This document shows, piece by piece, positions 20,147 through 49,072 of a stretch of DNA of 64,000 nucleotides. The position numbers and the translations under genes are program-made. The stretch is from a virus. How positions within the stretch are numbered: position 1 is the first letter of the stretch; each line of letters starts with the position of its first letter. The stretch lies in UHGV virus genome UHGV-1380027; one strand, 5' to 3'. The notes below the pieces were generated by a model that had not been told where the DNA came from, ran no database searches, and worked only from the letters and a program-made list of their open reading frames with translations.

Positions 20147-22129
20147 TTATTTGATGTTATTCTTTGTATCAATCAGTTCACGGTATTCAATCATAGCAGG
20201 AGTGTCCCAATATTTCAAGCCTACATGCTTCAAAAGTGGATATTTCTTTTCCAATCTTGCAATATAGGCCTTCCCGCACTTAACCCGGTTGGCGATTAAG
20301 ATTTTGGCACGATGATTTAGCTCACCGTACTTCCACGTGGTGCTACCTTCCCACTTGTGGAAATGTGGCCGATAACTTCCAAAATCCTGCATGGGGATAA
20401 TTTTACCTAACTGTCTGCACAGGCTGTCATATGAAGTTTCATTTGCTGCGCGAGTTAGTAAGAATTTCCAAGCATCCTCTTTCAACAAATGTTCCACATT
20501 CTTCTCTGTAACATATTGGCAATCAGGATCAGTCCAAAGCAGACGAGATTCCGACACCAGGTACAGATCTTCCCCTTCAGGAATCTGGAGTGCCGCACGC
20601 ACACGGTCATAATCTTGCTGGTAGATGTTGCTCATCTGCCCTAGCCAACAACTTCCGCGTTGGATATCCCCCTCATACGGTATGCAGTGCTTAATCTTCC
20701 TGAACTCTGCCTTAGTAATACGCTCACGCCGGAAGTAACCATCCTTCTCAAGTTTTTTAACCCAATAGCCTGGTTCGTAACGGGTTTTGGTTTCACCTTT
20801 CTTCGTAGGTCGGCGTGGAAGCTCCGATAACAATTTGACCGTATCTGCAAAAAACGGATGGTGTGCCGCCTCTTTAAACTCTTTCACCAGATCCGTGTTA
20901 CGGCAATAGAAAACGTTGCGTCCGGTAATCTCGCTTAAGTAGTTACACTTATTCCGGTTATATTTGCCGTCTCCGTCGTTAAATACTAAATAAACTCCCC
21001 GTAAGAATTCTACCTTTCCGTAGCAGGCGTAACCTATGCGGCCTTTATTTAAGCCGCCAGCGAAGATCTCGCAGTCCCCCAAATTTCCTAGCCCTGTTTC
21101 TTCCCAGCGGTCATACATAAAATTCTTACCGAAGATGTGCCCGAACACTCCACTGTTCTTCATCATCTCGCGTGCTTCTGAGGATGTTTTTGCTGTCTCC
21201 AGTTCTGCAACAACTTCTGCTCCACGAAGGCGAATGCCTTCTTTGACAAAAGCTTCCAAACGCTCTTGGAATCCACCATCGTCGTGACCTTCTATGGTCC
21301 ATTCACGCCCTGGGTTAATATTGCAATCTCCGATAGGGATCTCTACACAAATTGCAGGATAATCTATTAGTGTCTCCAGGAACTTAGAACGGTAAGGTTG
21401 GTGACCCATTACCACACGACTCTCGTCAGAGCTGGTATAACCCTTCAGGATGGTCATCTTCCAACCATCTTTTTCATAATAATACTGCGCCTCTACTTTG
21501 TCTCCCTCCAGCATCTTGCTCGTCATCGGGTCGGTGACAGTGAACGGAAATTTTGCATAGCGCAGGCATGATGCAATAGCGGTGCGATATTTCAGAACAT
21601 GCTCTTTCTTAACATGAAACTGAACTTTTACCCCGTTGTGCTCTTCAGTCTTCCGCTCACGGATCTTGGTGACATTTGGGATACCCTGGTCCAAGAACAA
21701 TAGGTATGTGCTTTCCACACCGTTGTGCACACTGATTACATCGAAAGTGTCCACCATGCTGAACGGGGCCTTTGAACCAACACCTTTATTGCCTACCAGA
21801 GCGTTGCTGTTGCGCTTGGTCGACTCACCGAGGTTCATGAAAGTGTTACGGACCATCTCTTCTGACATGCCTAATCCAACGTCCTGCACAAAGAAGTATG
21901 GTTCAAGGTCTGTAGGAGAGTGAATGATGATCGGAACATCACCCCGTCCAGACTCAACATGGGAGTCCACAGCATTGAAGATCGGTTCACGGCAGCTTGC
22001 CAGTACCTTATCTTCATAAATCCCTTTGATGATTAGCCCAAAAGTCTCTTTGTTCAGAGAAATTGATCCCCTGGTTACCTCCATATTCCCAGTTAGCACC
22101 GCTTTAGTTTCATTGCTGTTTACAATCAT
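20147..22129 (-). CDS. GHKL/Bergerat-fold ATPase domain protein, rIIA-like (660 aa)
   Basis: N-box REPIFNAVDS, G1 DVGLGM, G2 GNKGVGSK in N-terminal third; SD AAGGAG. Confidence 0.5.
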   Translation of the reverse strand: MIVNSNETKAVLTGNMEVTRGSISLNKETFGLIIKGIYEDKVLASCREPIFNAVDSHVESGRGDVPIIIHSPTDLEPYFFVQDVGLGMSEEMVRNTFMNLGESTKRNSNALVGNKGVGSKAPFSMVDTFDVISVHNGVESTYLLFLDQGIPNVTKIRERKTEEHNGVKVQFHVKKEHVLKYRTAIASCLRYAKFPFTVTDPMTSKMLEGDKVEAQYYYEKDGWKMTILKGYTSSDESRVVMGHQPYRSKFLETLIDYPAICVEIPIGDCNINPGREWTIEGHDDGGFQERLEAFVKEGIRLRGAEVVAELETAKTSSEAREMMKNSGVFGHIFGKNFMYDRWEETGLGNLGDCEIFAGGLNKGRIGYACYGKVEFLRGVYLVFNDGDGKYNRNKCNYLSEITGRNVFYCRNTDLVKEFKEAAHHPFFADTVKLLSELPRRPTKKGETKTRYEPGYWVKKLEKDGYFRRERITKAEFRKIKHCIPYEGDIQRGSCWLGQMSNIYQQDYDRVRAALQIPEGEDLYLVSESRLLWTDPDCQYVTEKNVEHLLKEDAWKFLLTRAANETSYDSLCRQLGKIIPMQDFGSYRPHFHKWEGSTTWKYGELNHRAKILIANRVKCGKAYIARLEKKYPLLKHVGLKYWDTPAMIEYRELIDTKNNIK

Positions 22130-22626
22130 TTATTGCGCTCCTTGTAGTAGATATGACTCCCGAATTGAGCTGTCCTCTGCATCTTTTTTGCCCATTTCGG
22201 TCGTACTTTTGTTGTATGGTAGTGTGTTGCTCCACCTGTTATATCCATAGCCATGTATGCAACATGGTTGTTATTATAGACCTTTAGAAGCATCTTTGCA
22301 AGACTTTTAGCGTGATCCCATGAATCTTTTTCTGTCACCTTAAAAGTTTTGCCGTGGTTTGTCCACGAAAACTGGTTAGGTTGGTAGACAATCTTTCTTA
22401 TAGTGTCTGGGTATTTGGGGTGAGATTTCCTGTTTAGTGTGGCAAATCCGGATGCCAGCATCCCCATCGTGCCATCCCCTCTAGCCTCCCTGTAGATATT
22501 GCATGCTAGAATGTTTTCCTTAGTATCCGACGGCTTGCAAGTGTGATATACTTTTTGTTTTGGTGCTGCAACAACAGGCAGCGATAAAAATGCGCTCAAA
22601 ATAATAGCAAAGATTTTAATTTTCAC
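22126..22626 (-). CDS. secreted cell-wall hydrolase, SleB/CwlJ-like (166 aa) with signal peptide
   Basis: N-terminal signal peptide MKIKIFAIILSAFLSLPVVAAP; motifs CNIYREARGD and YQPNQFSW. Confidence 0.6.
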   Translation of the reverse strand: MKIKIFAIILSAFLSLPVVAAPKQKVYHTCKPSDTKENILACNIYREARGDGTMGMLASGFATLNRKSHPKYPDTIRKIVYQPNQFSWTNHGKTFKVTEKDSWDHAKSLAKMLLKVYNNNHVAYMAMDITGGATHYHTTKVRPKWAKKMQRTAQFGSHIYYKERNK

Positions 22627-39540: not shown

Positions 39541-39588
39541 TGTGTTCTCCAGATAAGAAAACCGCCCCGTCAGGAGCGGTCAGATATA

Positions 39589-41334
39589 TTAACGTTGTGC
39601 AATAACCACATCCACAATATCACCAACACCACAATATGTCAATTGTAGCAAGGTGACACTGTTGGCTTTGTTGTTAATAACAGGAGTAGCCGACAGTATG
39701 GCATATTTATCGTGTAAAGTCACGTTGTGGCCTACAGCATCCTGAATGACATAGATGATTGCAGTGAACGGGTAAGGTTTATCTTCAGCCGATGTTCCAG
39801 GCCATTGCCCTATTGTAAAATCCCCTTTCGCGTGGACAACATACATATTGGCCTGCCCGTTAGGTGTCCATGTCCCACTAGATGCGTCAGCCTCCTCTAA
39901 GTCAAACTCCACCTTCCCTGCATGGAAAGCAGGGGCAGTAATAGTTTTACCAGCTTCAATTTCTTGAGAGGTGGTTATCTTGCCACTAGAGTTAATGCCA
40001 TTACAGACAAAGTTGACATTAGAGAAGTCTGGCAGCCACCCAGTCACTGTACCTGATATTTCAAGGTTGTGAAGGTGGGTGGTGCCAGTCCCTGCTGCGT
40101 TTAAACTAACATCTCCATTTACCTGCAAGTTTCTGGTAACGTTGCAGTTTTCAGAGTTTGCAGTTGTTGCAGTTAAAGTGGTGGTTGTCAGCTCGGTAAT
40201 TACACCTTTGTTGGCTGTAAGTCCTTCTCCTTCAAAAGTGGCACGCTCATTCACCCTCAGAGTATTTAAAGATATGTTCTGGACAGATGCTGTGCCACGA
40301 ATGACTATAGATCCTCCAACCTCTAAATCTCCATTGATCAGTGCATCTCCCGTGCTTTCAATATAGCTAGGGTAGATCATGGTGCCATCTACAGAGTAGG
40401 TTATCCCTGTAACGGTGCCTGTCACCTCAAGGTTCTTAACCCTAGTGGTCCCATCAACCTGCAATGTCGGTTCGGTGGCTGCCTTCATGGCATTACCGCG
40501 AATGTACACGTAGTCAAAAAAGTTATTACCTAGACCATCAAAATGCACATCGTTGTTATTAGCCACTGGTTTCCCAGAAGTTATAGTGTCAGCTATAACT
40601 CTGTGAGTTGATACTTCATGAGGTTGCAGCTCTGTGCTCCTCCAGTCTGCATGCTTAGGATCGCTCCACGCAAAAGTCAGTGTAGAAGTATTTGCCGTAA
40701 GGATTAGGTTCCTGAAGCGTGCAGTAGAATCTGCTCCATTAACAGGTCCGTGTAAGGTAAGGGTACCCCCAACTATAGTGTTAGCAAGTTCTGTAAGACC
40801 TTTTACCACCAAAGATCCTACAGTAACTTTCATCCCCTCCATGGCTTTAAATATGCTATCCACATAGTCAACAACAAACTCTGTGTTTGCTATAGACTCG
40901 GACTTATCATCCATTGGAGGTGTAGGTACTCTCGGGTCACCTTCGAACCTTGGGCTGTTAAGTTTTGCGTAGTATTTTGCCATTACTGCAGAGTCGGTGT
41001 ATAATCTCCAGTTCGGAGATTGTGAAGGATCTGCTGGCATCCTAACCGGGTTAGATTTTGACGCTGCTGGAGCGTACCACCACTGAGGGCCTGTATCTCC
41101 TTTAAACTCATACAGCTGGTTAAAAACTGTTGTGGATGCACCATACGCCCAAGGGATCGGTGGCGTTTTAAAATAAAGGTTGTCAAGCATGGCTTTTCGT
41201 ACCGTAGGGATAGTGGTCCCATCCTCTACGACAACTTCATCCACAGCGTTACCGTTGACAACCAAGTGCAAACGTTCAGAATCAACAATTACTTGATCTA
41301 CCGCCTGCTCGAAGCTTGTCATGTCTTGCGCCAT
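39589..41334 (-). CDS. tail fibre / tailspike-like protein (581 aa)
   Basis: Thr/Gly/Asn-rich beta-strand repeats (TGTVTGITYSVDGT, NLEISGTVTG); location in fibre module. Confidence 0.45.
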   Translation of the reverse strand: MAQDMTSFEQAVDQVIVDSERLHLVVNGNAVDEVVVEDGTTIPTVRKAMLDNLYFKTPPIPWAYGASTTVFNQLYEFKGDTGPQWWYAPAASKSNPVRMPADPSQSPNWRLYTDSAVMAKYYAKLNSPRFEGDPRVPTPPMDDKSESIANTEFVVDYVDSIFKAMEGMKVTVGSLVVKGLTELANTIVGGTLTLHGPVNGADSTARFRNLILTANTSTLTFAWSDPKHADWRSTELQPHEVSTHRVIADTITSGKPVANNNDVHFDGLGNNFFDYVYIRGNAMKAATEPTLQVDGTTRVKNLEVTGTVTGITYSVDGTMIYPSYIESTGDALINGDLEVGGSIVIRGTASVQNISLNTLRVNERATFEGEGLTANKGVITELTTTTLTATTANSENCNVTRNLQVNGDVSLNAAGTGTTHLHNLEISGTVTGWLPDFSNVNFVCNGINSSGKITTSQEIEAGKTITAPAFHAGKVEFDLEEADASSGTWTPNGQANMYVVHAKGDFTIGQWPGTSAEDKPYPFTAIIYVIQDAVGHNVTLHDKYAILSATPVINNKANSVTLLQLTYCGVGDIVDVVIAQR

Positions 41335-41343
41335 GATTTCTCC

Positions 41344-41610
41344 TTAAGCTTTTTGCTCTTCGTTTTTAACGTGGTCAGGGTGCTGGCAACCCCACCGGAG
41401 CGAGATGAATTTGCTAATAAGCTGGGGGCAGGCTACTGAAGGTGCGTATATCCACGCATACCATTCAGGAAGCGTATCATTGTACCCCATATGAATAAAC
41501 ACCCCAGTCATCACTGCCATGCCTATGTTTGACCATAGCTTAGATTGGGACACTTTCGTAGGGTCATCCGATGCCGCAACCAACCCCCATAAAAACTGAG
41601 TTAATTTCAT
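41344..41610 (-). CDS. small membrane protein (88 aa), function unknown
   Basis: hydrophobic segments IGMAVMTGVFIHMGY and WYAWIYAPSVA. Confidence 0.4.
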   Translation of the reverse strand: MKLTQFLWGLVAASDDPTKVSQSKLWSNIGMAVMTGVFIHMGYNDTLPEWYAWIYAPSVACPQLISKFISLRWGCQHPDHVKNEEQKA

Positions 41611-41619
41611 TTACCCTCT

Positions 41620-42666
41620 TTAAGCATAAGATATAGTGATCCATTGACCGTTTACAAATTTTTGAATGGCACCAGTCCAATAGTCGCCTTGATACGGGTG
41701 TTTATAGGCGTAATTGCCGGAGCACATTACATGCCCAGGGTATACTCTTGATTCTCTGTAGGTGGTTCTGAAACGGTTTGCTATCCTTACATCTTCAACA
41801 CCCCTACTAGGCATAGGAATAGTAAGGTTACCACTGCTATCTGCGCTGCTACCATTTACCCTGCGGACCACGTTTCTCCCACCAACTGTTGCATATTGAC
41901 CCCTGGCGGTGTTATCGTTACAATCCACTCTTCCACCTATTTGAGCGCTGCCGCAGGATTGTTGTCCATTAACAGTGGCTCTTGGTATCGTTACCGCATT
42001 AGCATTTGCAGAGGAGCTTTTTGCATCATTGCATTCAAGATTCCCTTGGATAGCCAGTCTTGCACGGTTGGCAGTTATAGCATTAAGCTTCATAGCCGAA
42101 AACACAGGCTGCCCACCAGAAGGTTGAAATCTCCAACGGAAACCGTCTATTTGGTGAGAAGGATCATCAAGGTCTGTGCCGTCAGCGCCGCCGATGTTGT
42201 CCATAATCCAGAAATCCATCATCGTTTTGTCTGGAGTTATGGTGGTGTATATCGCTGCATTGTCTGTTGACGCGGATGCAAACTCGATTCTTTGAAGACC
42301 CAAAGTTTGAGTCTGGGTCATTGTGTCCCCAGTCTTGTCAACATACAGGTCATCCATTTCTTCAGGCGAGTATACATTGAGGACTTTACGTGCAGCAGCT
42401 TTGTCTGGAACGTCTGCCAGATTATTAGTGACCCTTAAGAATCTATTATCCCATCCAGGGACAACATCTTCTGTTAAATGCTTTAGCCACGCAGAGAGCA
42501 TGTGGAGTTCAAAGTTAACAACTTCACATGCTATCCTTTGTGTCATATCCCAACCTTTCAATCTCTCTTCTTTGTTCGGTTGAGACTTGTTCAACTCTCC
42601 TGTATTTTCAAGCACAACATCCTGATTGGCCCAAATATCGAGAGGGATAACTGGTTTAGTCATCAC
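41620..42666 (-). CDS. tail fibre protein, paralog 2 (348 aa)
   Basis: GDTMT motif; N- and C-termini homologous to 43679..44719 (C-terminal VNGQWITISYA). Confidence 0.6.
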   Translation of the reverse strand: MMTKPVIPLDIWANQDVVLENTGELNKSQPNKEERLKGWDMTQRIACEVVNFELHMLSAWLKHLTEDVVPGWDNRFLRVTNNLADVPDKAAARKVLNVYSPEEMDDLYVDKTGDTMTQTQTLGLQRIEFASASTDNAAIYTTITPDKTMMDFWIMDNIGGADGTDLDDPSHQIDGFRWRFQPSGGQPVFSAMKLNAITANRARLAIQGNLECNDAKSSSANANAVTIPRATVNGQQSCGSAQIGGRVDCNDNTARGQYATVGGRNVVRRVNGSSADSSGNLTIPMPSRGVEDVRIANRFRTTYRESRVYPGHVMCSGNYAYKHPYQGDYWTGAIQKFVNGQWITISYA

Positions 42667-42721
42667 ATTCTCCTGAGAAAATTCCTTAAGGACTATTTTA
42701 ACACTTTAGAGAACAAAATGC

Positions 42722-42745
42722 AAGAACGGCATCCTTACCGTTCTT
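42722..42745 (-). terminator. possible terminator hairpin
   Basis: 8-bp stem AAGAACGG / CCGTTCTT with 8-nt loop, followed on minus strand by GCAUUUUGUUCU. Confidence 0.35.
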
Positions 42746-42753
42746 ACCTTTGT

Positions 42754-43068
42754 TTACCTTTTACTATGCTCTACAAGCATGTGCAAAATCTTTTGTACAT
42801 CAGCTCGGATACCGGAGACATCTGTCCTGACATCTTGCTTAAGGTCGTTAATATCGGCCTCTAGCTTACTTAACCGGGTCTCGATAATGGAATCAAGTCT
42901 ATCTTTTGTAACCATGCTATTTTTCACTAAAATGAGGTCTTTCTCCAGCTCATCCAACCTCTTGGAAATGCCTTTCCATTTGGTGTGCCACTGGTTGAAA
43001 GCCCATACACAGATCGGGACAACGGTACCCATGCAGATACCGTACAATGCCGCCAAATCCAACTCCAC
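42754..43068 (-). CDS. membrane-anchored coiled-coil protein (104 aa)
   Basis: N-terminal TM LAALYGICMGTVVPICVWAF followed by heptad-like region. Confidence 0.4.
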   Translation of the reverse strand: MELDLAALYGICMGTVVPICVWAFNQWHTKWKGISKRLDELEKDLILVKNSMVTKDRLDSIIETRLSKLEADINDLKQDVRTDVSGIRADVQKILHMLVEHSKR

Positions 43069-43079
43069 AACACCTCCTC

Positions 43080-43664
43080 TTAGAGGGTAGGTCGTTCCGG
43101 GAAGAAAATGTCAGGGGCTTTAGATGTATCTATTTCAAGAAGTTTTACCCTGTACATTTTCAAATCTCTGATGTTGCGTTTTTGGTCATCAGTAAGATCG
43201 TATTCAAGGTCAATCATGTCTTGATAGGCACCAATTCTAGCAGTAGCCCAAGCAAGTTCTGTCTCTATGACACCCTCTGCCTGTTGAACAAAGAATTCAT
43301 TGTCTGTGACAAATTCATCACCAACTAAACGCAAAGCGTCGTGGTGGAGCATAATGTTTTCTGGTACCTCTTCTTTTTTGGCGATAACCACACGAAGACC
43401 TGGAGCAGGCCACAAGGCATCAGGTTCTTCTGTAGATGTCTTAAGAATACCCTTCTCGTCAACAAGTAAGAAGATACAGCCGGGATTTTCTTGTCGCAGT
43501 GTTCGTGATTGCACATACCAATCGCCATCATCATTACGTAAAAAATATCCAGTGTATGCTGTGTAATCCTCAACCTCCTGAGGAGTCAGCTCCTTGGTCT
43601 CCTTGTTGGTGTAGTATTCGCCAGATCCCGGTTGGTAAAGTTTAAACTCTTGAAGTATTTTCAT
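43080..43664 (-). CDS. tail fibre assembly protein (Tfa / P2 gpG-like), 194 aa
   Basis: C-terminal signature DLKMYRVKLLEIDTSKAPDIFFPERP resembles Tfa consensus (WKxYRVxLxRVDTSxAPDIxWPxxP); directly downstream of fibre gene. Confidence 0.7.
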   Translation of the reverse strand: MKILQEFKLYQPGSGEYYTNKETKELTPQEVEDYTAYTGYFLRNDDGDWYVQSRTLRQENPGCIFLLVDEKGILKTSTEEPDALWPAPGLRVVIAKKEEVPENIMLHHDALRLVGDEFVTDNEFFVQQAEGVIETELAWATARIGAYQDMIDLEYDLTDDQKRNIRDLKMYRVKLLEIDTSKAPDIFFPERPTL

Positions 43665-43678
43665 GCTAGTCCTCCGAT

Positions 43679-44719
43679 CTACGCATAATTAACAGTGATC
43701 CATTGACCATTTACAAGTTTTTGTAAAGGTCCTGCCCAGTAGGTTGAACCACGCATCTCTTTTTTATCACCAAAATGCCAACCTGTGACAACGTAGCCGT
43801 TGCGAACTGGAGATTCAGAAACACCATCAACAAGTCTTGCACCGATTCTGATATCCTGTACCCCTGTCTGCGGGATGGTGATCGTTACATCTCCGTTACC
43901 GTTAGCCGTCACTCCATTCACAGAGCGCACCACATTTCTGTTACCGACAACACAATGCTGGCTTCTTACAACCATACTGTCACAACTTGCACCGCCATCA
44001 ACATATACGGACCCAGCTGTCAACTGACTAGCCACATTACAGTTGGTGAATGTTGCTGTGCTGCTGATGGTAAGGTTGTTACACCGCATGTTATCGACAA
44101 CTTCAACATTACCTACCACTTTCAACAGCGCACGGTTAGCCGTGATCGCGTTCAGGTACATCAAAGTGAACTCTGGATTAATGTCTGGCTGAGTTGGCTG
44201 GAATCTCCAACGAAACGCATCTACTGTAGATGTGCCACCATCATCAAACGCCCCAGTGTTATCACTTAACCCAAAGTCGAGAGTTGTCTTATCTGGACCA
44301 ATAGTTGTCTCTATCCAAGCCTTATCTGTCTCGGCAGCTTTAAAGTTGATACGCTGCAAACCTAAGGGGCCTGTCATTGTATCGCCTGTAACTTTTACAT
44401 ACCTGGCGTCTGCCTCTTCCTTAGTGATAATCCCAAGGTTTCTACGGGCAACAGGAATGTTCAAAAGATCGCTCAGGTTATTATCACGTACCAGATAACG
44501 GCCCTCTTGGGCAGGGATCTGCTCGTCAGCAATATATTTTGCCCAAGTCCCGAGCATATTGAAAATATAGTTAAGTTCTTCACATGACGGCTTTTGACCA
44601 AGATCCCAACCTTTTCTCCACAAATCATCAATCGGGCGTAGCCTGTTCTGTCTGTGGGTGTTAGGCAGAACCTGATCCTCCTCTGCCCAAATCTCTAATG
44701 GAAAACTAGGTTTTGACAT
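43679..44719 (-). CDS. tail fibre protein, paralog 1 (346 aa)
   Basis: GDTMTGPLGLQRINF motif; homologous to 41620..42666. Confidence 0.6.
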   Translation of the reverse strand: MSKPSFPLEIWAEEDQVLPNTHRQNRLRPIDDLWRKGWDLGQKPSCEELNYIFNMLGTWAKYIADEQIPAQEGRYLVRDNNLSDLLNIPVARRNLGIITKEEADARYVKVTGDTMTGPLGLQRINFKAAETDKAWIETTIGPDKTTLDFGLSDNTGAFDDGGTSTVDAFRWRFQPTQPDINPEFTLMYLNAITANRALLKVVGNVEVVDNMRCNNLTISSTATFTNCNVASQLTAGSVYVDGGASCDSMVVRSQHCVVGNRNVVRSVNGVTANGNGDVTITIPQTGVQDIRIGARLVDGVSESPVRNGYVVTGWHFGDKKEMRGSTYWAGPLQKLVNGQWITVNYA

Positions 44720-44731
44720 TTTATCTCCTGA

Positions 44732-46804
44732 TTATGAGAAGTCTGGCGGAACAACATCTTCTACATACCCTTTCAGAGCAACCTGCCCCATATGCAGAAC
44801 AGTAGAATCTCTGGCGGTAACAGTGATGCTGTCAGACATTACTTGCGGGTATGCCCACACATACTGTTTTACCTCAGGGTATCTATACTCTATGGTTGCC
44901 ATGTTTCCGCAAATACATCTCCATAAAAATTCTTGGTAATTCCTGGTTGGGTCGTAGCCATATACCGGAGCAAGCTCTTTGCTAGGAACGAACCCTGCAA
45001 GGTATTGTATTTCAGACGGTTTCCAACCTAACTTAACGATAGGTATGTTTACAGACTCTTTTGCCTTTTCAATACCTCCCTGCATCACCCAATCGTAGCA
45101 CTCAGTGCAGAAGAAATCAAGAGCACCTGCTTCCTTTTTATATTGGTCAGCAAGGTTCAGTTTTTGCGTAAGCTCGGTTTCCATAATAGTGGGGAAAAAC
45201 AGTAAAGCTGTCATCTGAGCCGATGCAGCGTGTGCTTTTATTGCCTTTGAAATGGCTGCAATACGAGCGCCAAGCTTACCACGACAAAATGCTACATACT
45301 TGTCATAAACACCGCCAGTTTTAGGATCGTCAATAGTCCCAATGTCTAGTGCATATTCACCAGTCTCATCATAAAACGCCTGCTTTGTAGGGTAGTCATA
45401 AATACAAGGCTTACGAGTATCGGTATTGAACCACCACCACGGTTCACCAATCTGCATAATCACTGGTAGGTTGTTTCTCATAGCGGCTGATGCAAAATTC
45501 TTAAATACTGCAGTAAGGAAATTCATGCCCTCTTCAATGGTTGGAGACAGGAGGTAACTACAAGGCGTATAGCCTGTTTTAGCATAGTTATCGTTCCAGT
45601 CTCTCTGGGTCCATTCCAACGGACAGGCATCGCTATAAAGCTCAAAGCTTACAGACTGCATAACGTCGAAGTCATGTCGTTTGGCATTGTACATAAAATC
45701 ATCATGCCATTTATAAGCTGCAGCGTTTAGAGCTCCTGTTTTGTTTATAGACCATTGGGTTCCTGACCATGTGTAGTCATAATAATGGCTCATACCAACA
45801 TAATGGTTTATGGTTCCTGTATAGCCCAGACGCTTGATATTGCTCAACACCCTTAAAGGGGATACGTTCCACATATCGTCATATGCTGTGCAGATCCCAA
45901 CATCGTGTTCTTTCACCTGAATATTGTTAAGTTGCATCATTTTCCAGCCTGTGTCCGGCTGAAGAAGATCTAGACGCAACTCACACTCTACATTTTCCGT
46001 TCTCGGGTCTGTGCTATTACCTACCCAATCTTTAGGCATAAGTGGTATTAGAATCCTTCTCACCTGCCGAGGATCAACACCCATCATGTTGTTGTTCTGG
46101 TCCATCCCGACGCAGTCCTCGAAATCAATATGAATTTCTGCAACATTCTTATCCTCTGAGATGCTGACAGCATATTGAGCTAAAGGAACATAGATGATTG
46201 TACCATCAACAAGGTCTACAGGCATAATCATCTTTTCAGGGGTGGAGAAGTTGCTGGCATTGGTTATTGACATTCTGAACCAAAGCTTGGTGTTTCTCAT
46301 CTCGTAGTGATCATCAAATCCAATGCCGAAATGGTCATACTTGTCAACTGTTTCCCAAATGCACCCAGCCATGCCCCCATATGTTCTTGACACTAAACGG
46401 TTAATACAGCAGTTATTATCCGCAACAATACAGGTGCTTTCAGTCTGCTGTGTGGTTGTAACCCAGTATCTTGGGTGAAACATTCTCTCCTCAACTGTAT
46501 CCCAAGATATTCTGTCAAGATTCTCATCTGAAACTATTGTACATTTCGCTCTTTGTGTTCCAATCATAACCCCTTGGGAGTTTGATGAAAACTCCATAAA
46601 GAAGCTCCTTGGCAACCTGTTTGGCAATTTGTCAACAATTTCTACAGGGATCTCGATACTGGTTGCCCCAACCGGGATAGTTACATCGCCCTCAACATGA
46701 TCATAATCCCTACCCGGAACTGCAGTATCTTGAACTGTGCGGTAATGAAACCGTGCAGCCATTGTAGAGTAATCACGGTAAGGTTTAAAAACAGCTGTTG
46801 CCAT
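44732..46804 (-). CDS. structural protein with N-terminal Calx-beta-like domain (690 aa)
   Basis: HYRTVQDTAVPGRDYDHVEGDVTIPVGATSIEIPVEIVD resembles Calx-beta consensus. Confidence 0.4.
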   Translation of the reverse strand: MATAVFKPYRDYSTMAARFHYRTVQDTAVPGRDYDHVEGDVTIPVGATSIEIPVEIVDKLPNRLPRSFFMEFSSNSQGVMIGTQRAKCTIVSDENLDRISWDTVEERMFHPRYWVTTTQQTESTCIVADNNCCINRLVSRTYGGMAGCIWETVDKYDHFGIGFDDHYEMRNTKLWFRMSITNASNFSTPEKMIMPVDLVDGTIIYVPLAQYAVSISEDKNVAEIHIDFEDCVGMDQNNNMMGVDPRQVRRILIPLMPKDWVGNSTDPRTENVECELRLDLLQPDTGWKMMQLNNIQVKEHDVGICTAYDDMWNVSPLRVLSNIKRLGYTGTINHYVGMSHYYDYTWSGTQWSINKTGALNAAAYKWHDDFMYNAKRHDFDVMQSVSFELYSDACPLEWTQRDWNDNYAKTGYTPCSYLLSPTIEEGMNFLTAVFKNFASAAMRNNLPVIMQIGEPWWWFNTDTRKPCIYDYPTKQAFYDETGEYALDIGTIDDPKTGGVYDKYVAFCRGKLGARIAAISKAIKAHAASAQMTALLFFPTIMETELTQKLNLADQYKKEAGALDFFCTECYDWVMQGGIEKAKESVNIPIVKLGWKPSEIQYLAGFVPSKELAPVYGYDPTRNYQEFLWRCICGNMATIEYRYPEVKQYVWAYPQVMSDSITVTARDSTVLHMGQVALKGYVEDVVPPDFS

Positions 46805-48992: not shown

Positions 48993-49072
48993 GTCACTCC
49001 TCCGGTATGAAAATCTCTACAAGGTATTTTACCAAATTTTGTAACAATAGTCAATCTGAGCATAAAAATAAA

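Follow-up and report, generated by a model that had tools for sequence, protein, structure and literature searches.

Our analysis of a 64,000-nucleotide stretch of the viral genome UHGV-1380027 (hereafter the window) points toward two small genes, embedded among the tail-fibre genes between positions 41,344 and 44,719, as parts of the phage lysis pathway. Both would encode late proteins of the inner membrane: p88, of 88 amino acids (aa), is a candidate holin or holin-class protein, and p104, of 104 aa, may be its releasin-like partner. We give this reading a probability of about 0.5. The holin role is suggested for p88 because its family fills the holin slot in lysis cassettes of Mu-like phages whose endolysins lack an export signal.

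In our model, p88 would form a hairpin of two helices, followed by a charged C-terminal tail, and build up in the inner membrane while virions are assembled; its triggering would let the soluble endolysin reach the cell wall. p104 would be tethered to the membrane and expose to the cytoplasm a helical hairpin of the design of gp25 of phage Mu, a DUF2730 protein, and it may act as a partner of p88 or as a regulator that times the p88 step. More tentatively, phrog_1322/DUF2644, to which the p88 family leads, may be a widespread and unrecognised holin family, providing the missing holin of many Mu-like phages and of the rV5/phi92 supergroup (Vequintavirinae, Stephanstirmvirinae and Plateaulakevirus), with a releasin-related partner (p104/phrog_5345-15210-462) and with the pair relocated into short-tail-fibre operons. 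If so, relocation would tie the timing of lysis to the expression of the last-assembled parts of the virion, a large "membrane protein"/DUF family (phrog_1322, DUF2644) would gain a function, many Mu-like prophages would gain a holin, and DUF2730-like proteins that are not associated with signal-anchor-release (SAR) endolysins would gain a testable partner. What is new is a holin candidate, backed by homology and synteny, for a phage group without a confidently identified holin; rV5-like and phi92-like phages are among the most often isolated coliphages and find wide use in cocktails for therapy and biocontrol.

The p88 family and its place in lysis cassettes

Between 41000 and 45000, the sequence shares 99.8% identity with Escherichia phage vB_EcoM-ECP26 and 95-98% with about 110 further rV5/FV3-like Vequintavirus genomes, and the window is that of a Vequintavirus, an rV5/FV3-like myovirus. 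The five open reading frames (ORFs) that the first-pass annotation had placed here are all present on the minus strand, and curated records of relatives list these five genes in unchanged order: a short tail fibre (STF1), a Tfa-type fibre assembly chaperone, p104, a second short tail fibre (STF2) and p88. Compared with the gp33-gp32-gp31-gp30-gp29 locus of rV5 (PMC3606486; BASEL collection, PMC8594841), gene order is identical, the proteins are about 95-100% identical and there is no structural difference. In the rV5 and BASEL papers, gp29 (p88) was left unannotated, gp31 (p104) was just a "membrane protein, 1 TMD" (transmembrane domain), and no lysis role was proposed for either (PMC3606486; PMC8594841).

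The Vequintavirus endolysin is soluble, with no SAR or other transmembrane (TM) segment and a maximal Kyte-Doolittle hydropathy of 0.42, and therefore a holin is required. The inner- and outer-membrane spanins (i-spanin and o-spanin) of the subfamily are encoded as a pair beside the terminase genes (PMC6658697; PMC7344957). For phage LL12, the CPT (Center for Phage Technology) annotators accepted no holin candidate (PMC6658697), and the authors of KPP-1 found none. The proposals made so far were drawn from topology, in rV5 from topology alone (gp129; PMC3606486) and in CB7 for a different small protein, encoded next to a SleB-like gene (PMC7344957).

By tblastn, p88 has homologues in 374 deposited phages, which cover all genera of the Vequintavirinae, phi92-like and phAPEC8-like phages and the Aeromonas genus Plateaulakevirus. 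A profile search retrieved about 200 clusters at 90% identity, nearly all of them on contigs of 130-155 kb, and an exhaustive search of 1.84 billion representative proteins with a p88 hidden Markov model (HMM) yielded 126 clusters, all of small proteins. Members share the signature SHTK(L/F)W(S/A)N(I/V)(G/A)..T..F, a second helix, the motif SK(F/L)LSLKYG and a charged tail. All 125 members scanned fall in phrog_1322, and 7 match Pfam DUF2644; those seven are distant members (best E value, 6e-7), the window p88 and its close relatives give no match to DUF2644 even at E <= 10, and we do not assign the window protein to that Pfam family. The homology is statistically sound and independent of the chain of intermediates, because a profile built from rV5/phi92 sequences only finds proteins in the lysis cassettes of Pseudomonas phage Bise (5e-9) and Ralstonia phage RS138 (5e-5), and the Bise protein is linked to Klebsiella and Erwinia Vequintavirinae by plain tblastn (3e-4). 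In the 1.84 billion proteins the same profile found P0157 (6.5e-8), P0169 (3e-6) and P0181 (1.7e-5), which are carried on metagenomic Mu-like contigs.

Eleven independent distant contexts were examined, and in seven, mostly from Mu-like phages, the p88-family gene lies directly beside endolysin and/or spanin genes. The RS138 cassette consists of a late activator, endolysin, the p88-like gene and Rz/Rz1, and that of Bise of Mor, an M15 endolysin, the p88-like gene, Rz with an embedded Rz1, and a 92-aa TM and coiled-coil protein; in both, the p88-like gene stands between endolysin and spanin with overlapping stop and start codons. The context of P0181 is similarly composed (Mor, M15 endolysin, p88-like gene, Rz/Rz1, DksA, a 114-aa TM and coiled-coil protein, and Mu gp27). 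The P0169 gene follows an M15 endolysin gene and precedes i-spanin and o-spanin genes, the P0157 gene follows an M15 endolysin gene, and the P0172 gene is followed by the two spanin genes. The P0238 gene is followed by genes for a small TM protein, i-spanin and o-spanin, and four genes upstream a DUF5675 protein is encoded, the family listed in Table S1 of Chamblee et al. for the presumed endolysin of phage Martha (PMC9239132). On contigs L103 and L105, an i-/o-spanin pair comes directly after the p88-like gene. The cassette endolysins are soluble and without export signals, which leaves the p88-type gene as the sole holin-like one in the cassettes of RS138 and Bise. Lipoboxes are present in the o-spanins, whether embedded or adjacent. 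None of the deposited records among the matches listed calls a p88-family member a holin, and DUF2644 is not mentioned in the literature. An 87-aa gene between endolysin and spanin in Vibrio phage 1.028.O was considered as a further relative and rejected, since its product is soluble and not a family member.

The p88 protein itself is plausibly a two-helix membrane hairpin, weakly hydrophobic in this phage. Its AlphaFold2 (AF2) model, of low confidence (predicted local distance difference test [pLDDT], 60), is a helical hairpin (residues 22-44 and 49-72) with a 4-residue loop. The loop is acidic, the termini are basic, and the C-terminal tail is highly charged and variable (HPDHVKNEEQKA in the window; longer, rich in D/E/R/Y and ending in RR in relatives). 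Across the family, maximal hydropathy has a median of 1.57 and is >=1.5 in 58% of members, and the last 15 residues hold a median of 5 charged ones, the charged tail expected of a holin. What varies most in the protein is the length of this tail; in a metagenomic, Vequintavirus-like two-fibre lineage (contigs L004 and L006) the homologue has 113-126 aa and a tail rich in Tyr, Asp, Arg and Ser that ends in RR.

With class II holins such as S68 of phage 21 and gp17.5 of T7, p88 shares small size, two helices, N-in/C-in topology as predicted from charge, a charged C-terminal tail and late expression, the last as suggested by the promoter motif upstream of its operon. However, no sequence relationship to p88 was detected, and the p88 helices are much less hydrophobic. 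The location of p88 has parallels: T7 holin gene 17.5 directly follows tail-fibre gene 17, and T4 holin gene t, which follows gene 38, is another precedent for a holin gene behind a fibre gene.

p104 and its likeness to releasins

Homologues of p104 were found in >220 deposited phage genomes, and more distant relatives were gathered by single-protein scans. In every related genus, a protein of about 92-113 aa with an N-terminal TM segment and helices follows the fibre and chaperone genes, forming a conserved STF-Tfa-p104 trio. The hydrophobic segment of p104 (residues ~5-21) reaches a hydropathy of about 1.9-2.1, and AF2 (pLDDT 88) predicts two long helices (5-50 and 55-103); "membrane-anchored coiled-coil", the wording of the first-pass annotation, is a fair description. 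The N-terminal flank is acidic with no positive charge, and 3 positive residues follow the TM segment. The same holds for all 7 homologues compared, with N flanks of 0 positive residues and a net charge of -1 to -3 and with C flanks of 2-4 positive residues, a pattern that predicts N-out/C-in topology. The helical domain is therefore predicted to be cytoplasmic.

This topology bears on the proposal that p104 is spanin-like, which we have given up. As in i-spanins of the lambda Rz type, an N-terminal TMD is followed by coiled-coil helices, and weak PHROG matches to Rz-like families were obtained (E values of 5e-4 to 9e-3). In contrast to them, p104 is shorter (104 aa versus 124-198 aa in the i-spanin-like proteins examined), has no o-spanin partner and has the opposite predicted topology; its profile match is 2%, and the real spanin genes lie elsewhere. 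An o-spanin lipoprotein ORF was found neither within p104 nor next to it: the sole overlapping ORF on the same strand (42927-43073, 48 aa) has no lipobox, and a hairpin, a promoter and STF2 follow downstream. The same inspection does find the o-spanin partners in genuine cassettes.

p104 is closer in design to Mu gp25 (DUF2730), a membrane-tethered cytoplasmic "releasin" (Chamblee et al. 2022, PMC9239132). Phage DUF2730 proteins are all reported to be N-out/C-in and encoded within five genes of an endolysin; they also occur with cytoplasmic endolysins in Mu-like phages, where their role was left open (PMC9239132). Shared with p104 are a length of about 100 aa, an MDL/MEL start, an N-terminal N-out/C-in TMD, a cytoplasmic helical domain and late expression (for p104, as predicted). 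Profile-profile alignment (hhalign) of p104 with DUF2730 gave 62% (E value, 7.6e-5; 68 columns) with profiles of 27 and 30 sequences and 27% with thin profiles, compared with 0.4-2% for i-spanin controls. Furthermore, HMM comparison links phrog_15210, the phi92-like version (annotated "lipoprotein"), both to phrog_5345 and to phrog_462, the family of the 92-aa protein of Bise and the 114-aa protein of contig L014, which are encoded just after the spanins. In that same post-spanin position, the Vibrio 1.028.O cassette has a bona fide DUF2730 protein, and TM and coiled-coil proteins adjoin p88-like genes in contigs L019 and L106 as well. These comparisons are suggestive only: p104 appears to be built like a releasin-family protein. 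The "holin-like" of the first-pass annotation has been sharpened into a specific hypothesis for p88, and for p104 we would replace "spanin-like" by "releasin-like".

In the Mu-like cassette of L103, the gene after the p88-like, i-spanin and o-spanin genes (L103:4428-4649) specifies a coiled-coil protein of 73 aa that is anchored by a C-terminal TM segment, a mirror image of the p104 design that is reminiscent of XhlA-type proteins. Pfam matches of p104 and of the gp28-type fibre to Bactofilin, XhlA, Apolipoprotein and the like were discarded, being far below the cut-offs and attributable to coiled-coil or beta-helix composition.

The lysis reading and its rivals

Several points weigh against a role of p88 and p104 in lysis. 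The window p88 is not clearly the multi-TM protein that had been announced: its hydropathy peaks at about 1.05, and TMHMM and Phobius, as run by the rV5 authors, called no TMD in gp29 (PMC3606486). It has no similarity to Pfam holin families, and a resemblance to the T7 holin gp17.5 (LNEWFY versus LPEWYAW) did not hold up (<=9 bits; hhalign, 0.8%). In this genome p88 adjoins neither endolysin nor spanin genes, the endolysin gene being about 50 kb away by the rV5 and FV3 maps, and of the 11 distant contexts, 4 lie outside lysis cassettes: one is T4-like and three are of the tail-module type, one of which holds p104, a membrane protein that we call mid (phrog_7451, described below) and p88 as a full triad. 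As for p104, the alignment with DUF2730 reaches just 62% at near-zero residue identity, neither p104 nor its homologues match Pfam PF10805 (DUF2730) at E <= 0.1, and Mu gp25 belongs to a PHROG of its own (phrog_736); for these three reasons we do not file p104 as a DUF2730 member. Short TM and coiled-coil proteins are prone to spurious similarity, p104 is not within five genes of an endolysin, as DUF2730 proteins are, and the characterised releasin acts on SAR endolysins, whereas the endolysin of this phage is soluble. The literature contains no experiment on any member of the p88 (phrog_1322/DUF2644) or p104 families; in the CRISPRi-ART paper, the knock-downs in the Vequintavirus EdH4 were limited to capsid and rII. 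Finally, rV5 gp129, with two strongly hydrophobic TMDs and a K/R/E-rich charged tail, has more classical class II holin features than p88.

It could be that gp129, which is encoded outside the window and was proposed as holin by the rV5 authors, is the true Vequintavirus holin, with p88 and p104 as accessory regulators (antiholin or timing) or with one of them redundant. In other genera mid could be the holin and its loss be compensated by gp129, whose homologues are confined to Vequintavirus sensu stricto, which lacks mid, and the weak hydrophobicity of p88 recalls some antiholin or SAR-type segments. Though gp129 is a serious candidate, we consider it unlikely that it takes the place of p88, since it is restricted to one genus and lies in an early/middle region served by sigma70-type promoters, and the CPT annotators of LL12 accepted no candidate. 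In RS138 and Bise, where the endolysin is soluble, no small multi-helix membrane gene other than the p88-type one lies beside it, and the p88-type product therefore cannot be just an antiholin there. The position of p88 and p104 would also fit a task in assembly, as non-virion factors that tether the assembly of short fibres or baseplate to the inner membrane or aid fibre maturation together with Tfa, with no part in lysis. Their place in the fibre/baseplate module is strictly conserved in >220 (p104) and >370 (p88) deposited phage genomes, they are, as judged by sequence, translationally coupled and co-transcribed with fibre genes, the p104-type gene always comes after Tfa, and three distant p88 contexts also adjoin fibre-like or baseplate-like genes. 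Left unexplained by such a task are the distant p88 homologues in Mu-like lysis cassettes, far from fibre genes; moreover, the neighbours of p88 vary by genus (it comes after the endosialidase fibre in phi92-like phages and before gp28 here), and we know of no membrane-bound fibre chaperone. Assembly factors thus appear improbable to us.

Neither protein seems to be a part of the virion, as the first-pass annotation had considered for the case that they act neither in lysis nor in exclusion. In mass spectrometry (MS) of CB7 virions, the two flanking fibres (the short one, CB7_31, and the next, CB7_36) were found, whereas products of the 4 genes in between were not; gp29 and gp31 carry no MS flag in the rV5 list, and gp144, gp148 and gp149 are not among the virion components in the electron cryomicroscopy (cryo-EM) structure paper on phi92. 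This is supportive rather than conclusive, because MS easily misses small membrane proteins. That p88 and p104 act in superinfection exclusion or receptor masking, the other role suggested at first, would have precedents in small membrane proteins encoded beside receptor-binding genes (Llp of T5, Cor of T1/phi80), and in PHROGs the category of phrog_1322 is "moron, auxiliary metabolic gene and host takeover". Otherwise we found no positive support for it and regard it as very improbable. The two proteins lack the lipobox or signal peptide of the Llp/Cor type, their genes belong, as judged by promoter motifs, to late rather than early operons, and they are strongly and near-universally conserved across genera with different receptors. 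In the Vequintavirinae these receptors are glycans (enterobacterial common antigen, lipopolysaccharide core), which an inner-membrane protein cannot mask, and exclusion leaves the p88-family members in lysis cassettes unexplained.

Fibre genes, transcription signals and the mid slot

The features of the locus are collected in Table 1. The two fibres are paralogues (43% identity; E value, 1e-94) that match phrog_4465 "tail fiber protein" end to end. The pair with its single chaperone is already published for rV5 (gp33/gp32/gp30; Kropinski et al. 2013, PMC3606486), whose gp30 and gp33 are 42.3% identical and T4-gp12-like (PMC3606486). The first-pass annotation was right about their homology and only roughly right in calling them alike at both ends and divergent centrally: homology is full-length, identity varies from 27 to 63% in 30-aa windows, and conservation is highest in a central block (residues ~105-150, GDTM...LGLQRI...PDKT) and lowest at residues ~45-75, ~205-245 and ~290-330. 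STF2 most likely starts at ATG 42663 (347 aa, as in rV5 gp30 and Bas51) and not at GTG 42666, because the AGGAG box is 6 nt from the ATG and just 3 nt from the GTG. Residues 1-108 of STF1 match a solved "short tail fiber" (9cuy; E value, 1.5e-19) and residues 286-343 match the tail fibre protein S of Mu (5yvq; 1.5e-6); STF1 thus combines an N-terminal baseplate-attachment domain with a Mu-S-like tip, as does STF2 by virtue of full-length homology.

Table 1. Coordinates of features at the fibre locus of the window and of mid genes on related contigs
Feature	Coordinates	Strand	Remarks
STF1, short tail fibre	43679..44719	-	346 aa; orthologue of rV5 gp33; phrog_4465 (1.4e-170)
Tfa-type tail-fibre assembly chaperone	43080..43664	-	rV5 gp32; PF02413 and phrog_136
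p104, predicted N-terminal TM anchor and helical hairpin	42754..43068	-	104 aa; rV5 gp31; phrog_5345 (1e-48); last gene of the putative P036 operon
Stable hairpin	42720..42747	-	12-bp stem, then ATTTTGTTCT; directly 3' of the p104 stop; terminator-like in scan
Putative late promoter P030	42679..42716	-	core TGTTAAAATA at 42694-42703; upstream of STF2, p88 and gp28
STF2, second short tail fibre	41620..42666	-	348 aa as listed; rV5 gp30; phrog_4465 (1.8e-163)
p88, small two-helix candidate membrane protein	41344..41610	-	88 aa; rV5 gp29; phrog_1322 (2.7e-32, full length)
gp28-type lateral tail fibre	39589..41334	-	next fibre, rV5 gp28; phrog_4549 (4e-251); downstream of p88, putatively co-transcribed
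Terminator ending the putative P030 unit	39560-39581		terminator scan; rV5 t028
mid (phrog_7451) genes	L007:4505-4978; L008:4519-4977; L106:3047-3514; L108:1954-2427

The chaperone is a genuine Tfa, correctly described at first and already published. It exceeds the gathering cut-off of Pfam PF02413 (Caudo_TAP; E value, 1e-11; 45.5 versus 22.1 bits; residues 121-192) and matches phrog_136 (1e-36). Its gene lies 14 nt downstream of STF1, an arrangement kept in all related genera, and its CB7 homologue was not detected in virions by MS. Of the two fibres, STF1 represents the ancestral copy and is the orthologue of phi92 gp147 ("fiber III") and of the one short fibre that related genera possess. 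This is indicated by comparison with relatives that have a single short fibre (Klebsiella, Pectobacterium, Aeromonas and phi92-like phages), whose fibre resembles STF1 more than STF2; for that of Klebsiella phage KpS8, identity is 47% (248 bits) to STF1 versus 38% (169 bits) to STF2. By sequence comparison STF2 is the derived paralogue and evolves faster, with a between-lineage identity of 48% versus 74% for STF1. In phi92, a 2026 cryo-EM study places gp147 under the wedge protein and proposes a role in irreversible adsorption. In the model, STF1 would be a short fibre of the Mu S kind, docked on the baseplate wedge, with Tfa as its chaperone of the Mu-U/lambda-Tfa type, and STF2 would be a diverged duplicate that has its own late promoter and probably occupies the same baseplate site. 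Tfa is probably shared by both fibres, because the C-terminal tip of STF2 is related to that of STF1.

The likeness to S and U of Mu is thus in the STF1 tip and in the Caudo_TAP type of the chaperone. Unlike Mu, which has an invertible S/S' segment, this locus has two tandemly expressed paralogues, the second under its own late promoter, and the N-terminal domain of STF1 is of the 9cuy short-fibre type. With regard to the fibre duplication, only two points are new: STF1 is ancestral, and STF2 is the faster-evolving copy that probably took the place of a membrane-protein gene.

That gene is mid. In the STF2 slot of Mydovirus, Certrevirus, KP12 and contig L106 (the slot was compared with KpS8, PcCB7V and KP12), there is a very hydrophobic, polytopic membrane protein of about 155 aa (phrog_7451, no known function), whose start codon overlaps the stop codon of the p104 homologue. 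The ancestral order was likely STF-Tfa-p104-mid-p88, because this protein fills the slot of STF2 in related genera; mid would then have given way, in Vequintavirus, to a duplicated fibre equipped with a late promoter of its own. The genus that lost mid, Vequintavirus, is also the one to which gp129 is specific.

The sole sizeable intergenic gap of the locus (42667-42753) holds the hairpin and the late-promoter motif. The hairpin folds at -23.7 to -28.4 kcal/mol (z -4.4 to -5.7; 0 of 200 shuffles as stable), and its stem is kept in close relatives through T.G, C-G and A-T changes and is weak in the divergent L004/L006 lineage. It is probably a (partial) intrinsic terminator or an RNA-stabilising element that closes the P036 unit; the terminator list of the rV5 authors does not include it, though their promoter list has P030. 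The window copy of P030 is near-identical (one extra T) to entry P030 of rV5 Table S4, and its core AGTGyTAAAATA is invariant even in L004/L006. With <=1 mismatch, the motif TGGTAAAATA occurs 15 times in the window versus 5.5 expected, and perfect copies lie upstream of late genes at 49025 and 54529. These signals suggest two late units, one running from P036 through baseplate genes, STF1, Tfa and p104 to the hairpin, the other from P030 through STF2, p88 and gp28 to terminator t028. All junctions within the two units have Shine-Dalgarno boxes and gaps of 9-14 nt, and p88 appears translationally coupled to both STF2 and gp28.

Further observations concern genes and records around the locus. 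Across it, 15-21 records that bear the name "Campylobacter phage" (MG0656xx; host given as C. jejuni) share about 95% identity with E. coli Vequintavirus genomes; they are probably mislabelled or derived from contaminating coliphages. Upstream of STF1, the gp34 homologue (44732-46804, minus strand) matches the TIM-barrel of a Pfam "non-contractile tail sheath protein" (7e-80), an N-terminal domain (8e-12) and Calx-beta; the Bas51 annotation makes it a lateral fibre and gives it glycosidase and deacetylase domains.

Two further places were inspected for lysis genes. Next to the SleB-like gene of the window (22126-22626), there is no ORF like CB7_82, the class II holin candidate that overlaps the SleB-like hydrolase gene. 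The gene itself (minus strand), upstream of rIIA (20147-22129, minus strand), whose start its stop overlaps by 4 nt, specifies a cell-wall hydrolase of the SleB/Hydrolase_2 type that carries an N-terminal signal peptide of its own; in addition to the soluble endolysin, the phage has in it a second muralytic enzyme, which is exported. Near the endolysin and outside the window, FV3_00084 (L040:1603-1809; phrog_4641), annotated as a "membrane protein" and 68 aa long, was rejected as holin, as it has just a signal-peptide-like N terminus and is not holin-like. Its gene lies two genes downstream of that for the endolysin, with an HNH endonuclease insertion between them, and the protein could be an RI-like periplasmic lysis regulator.

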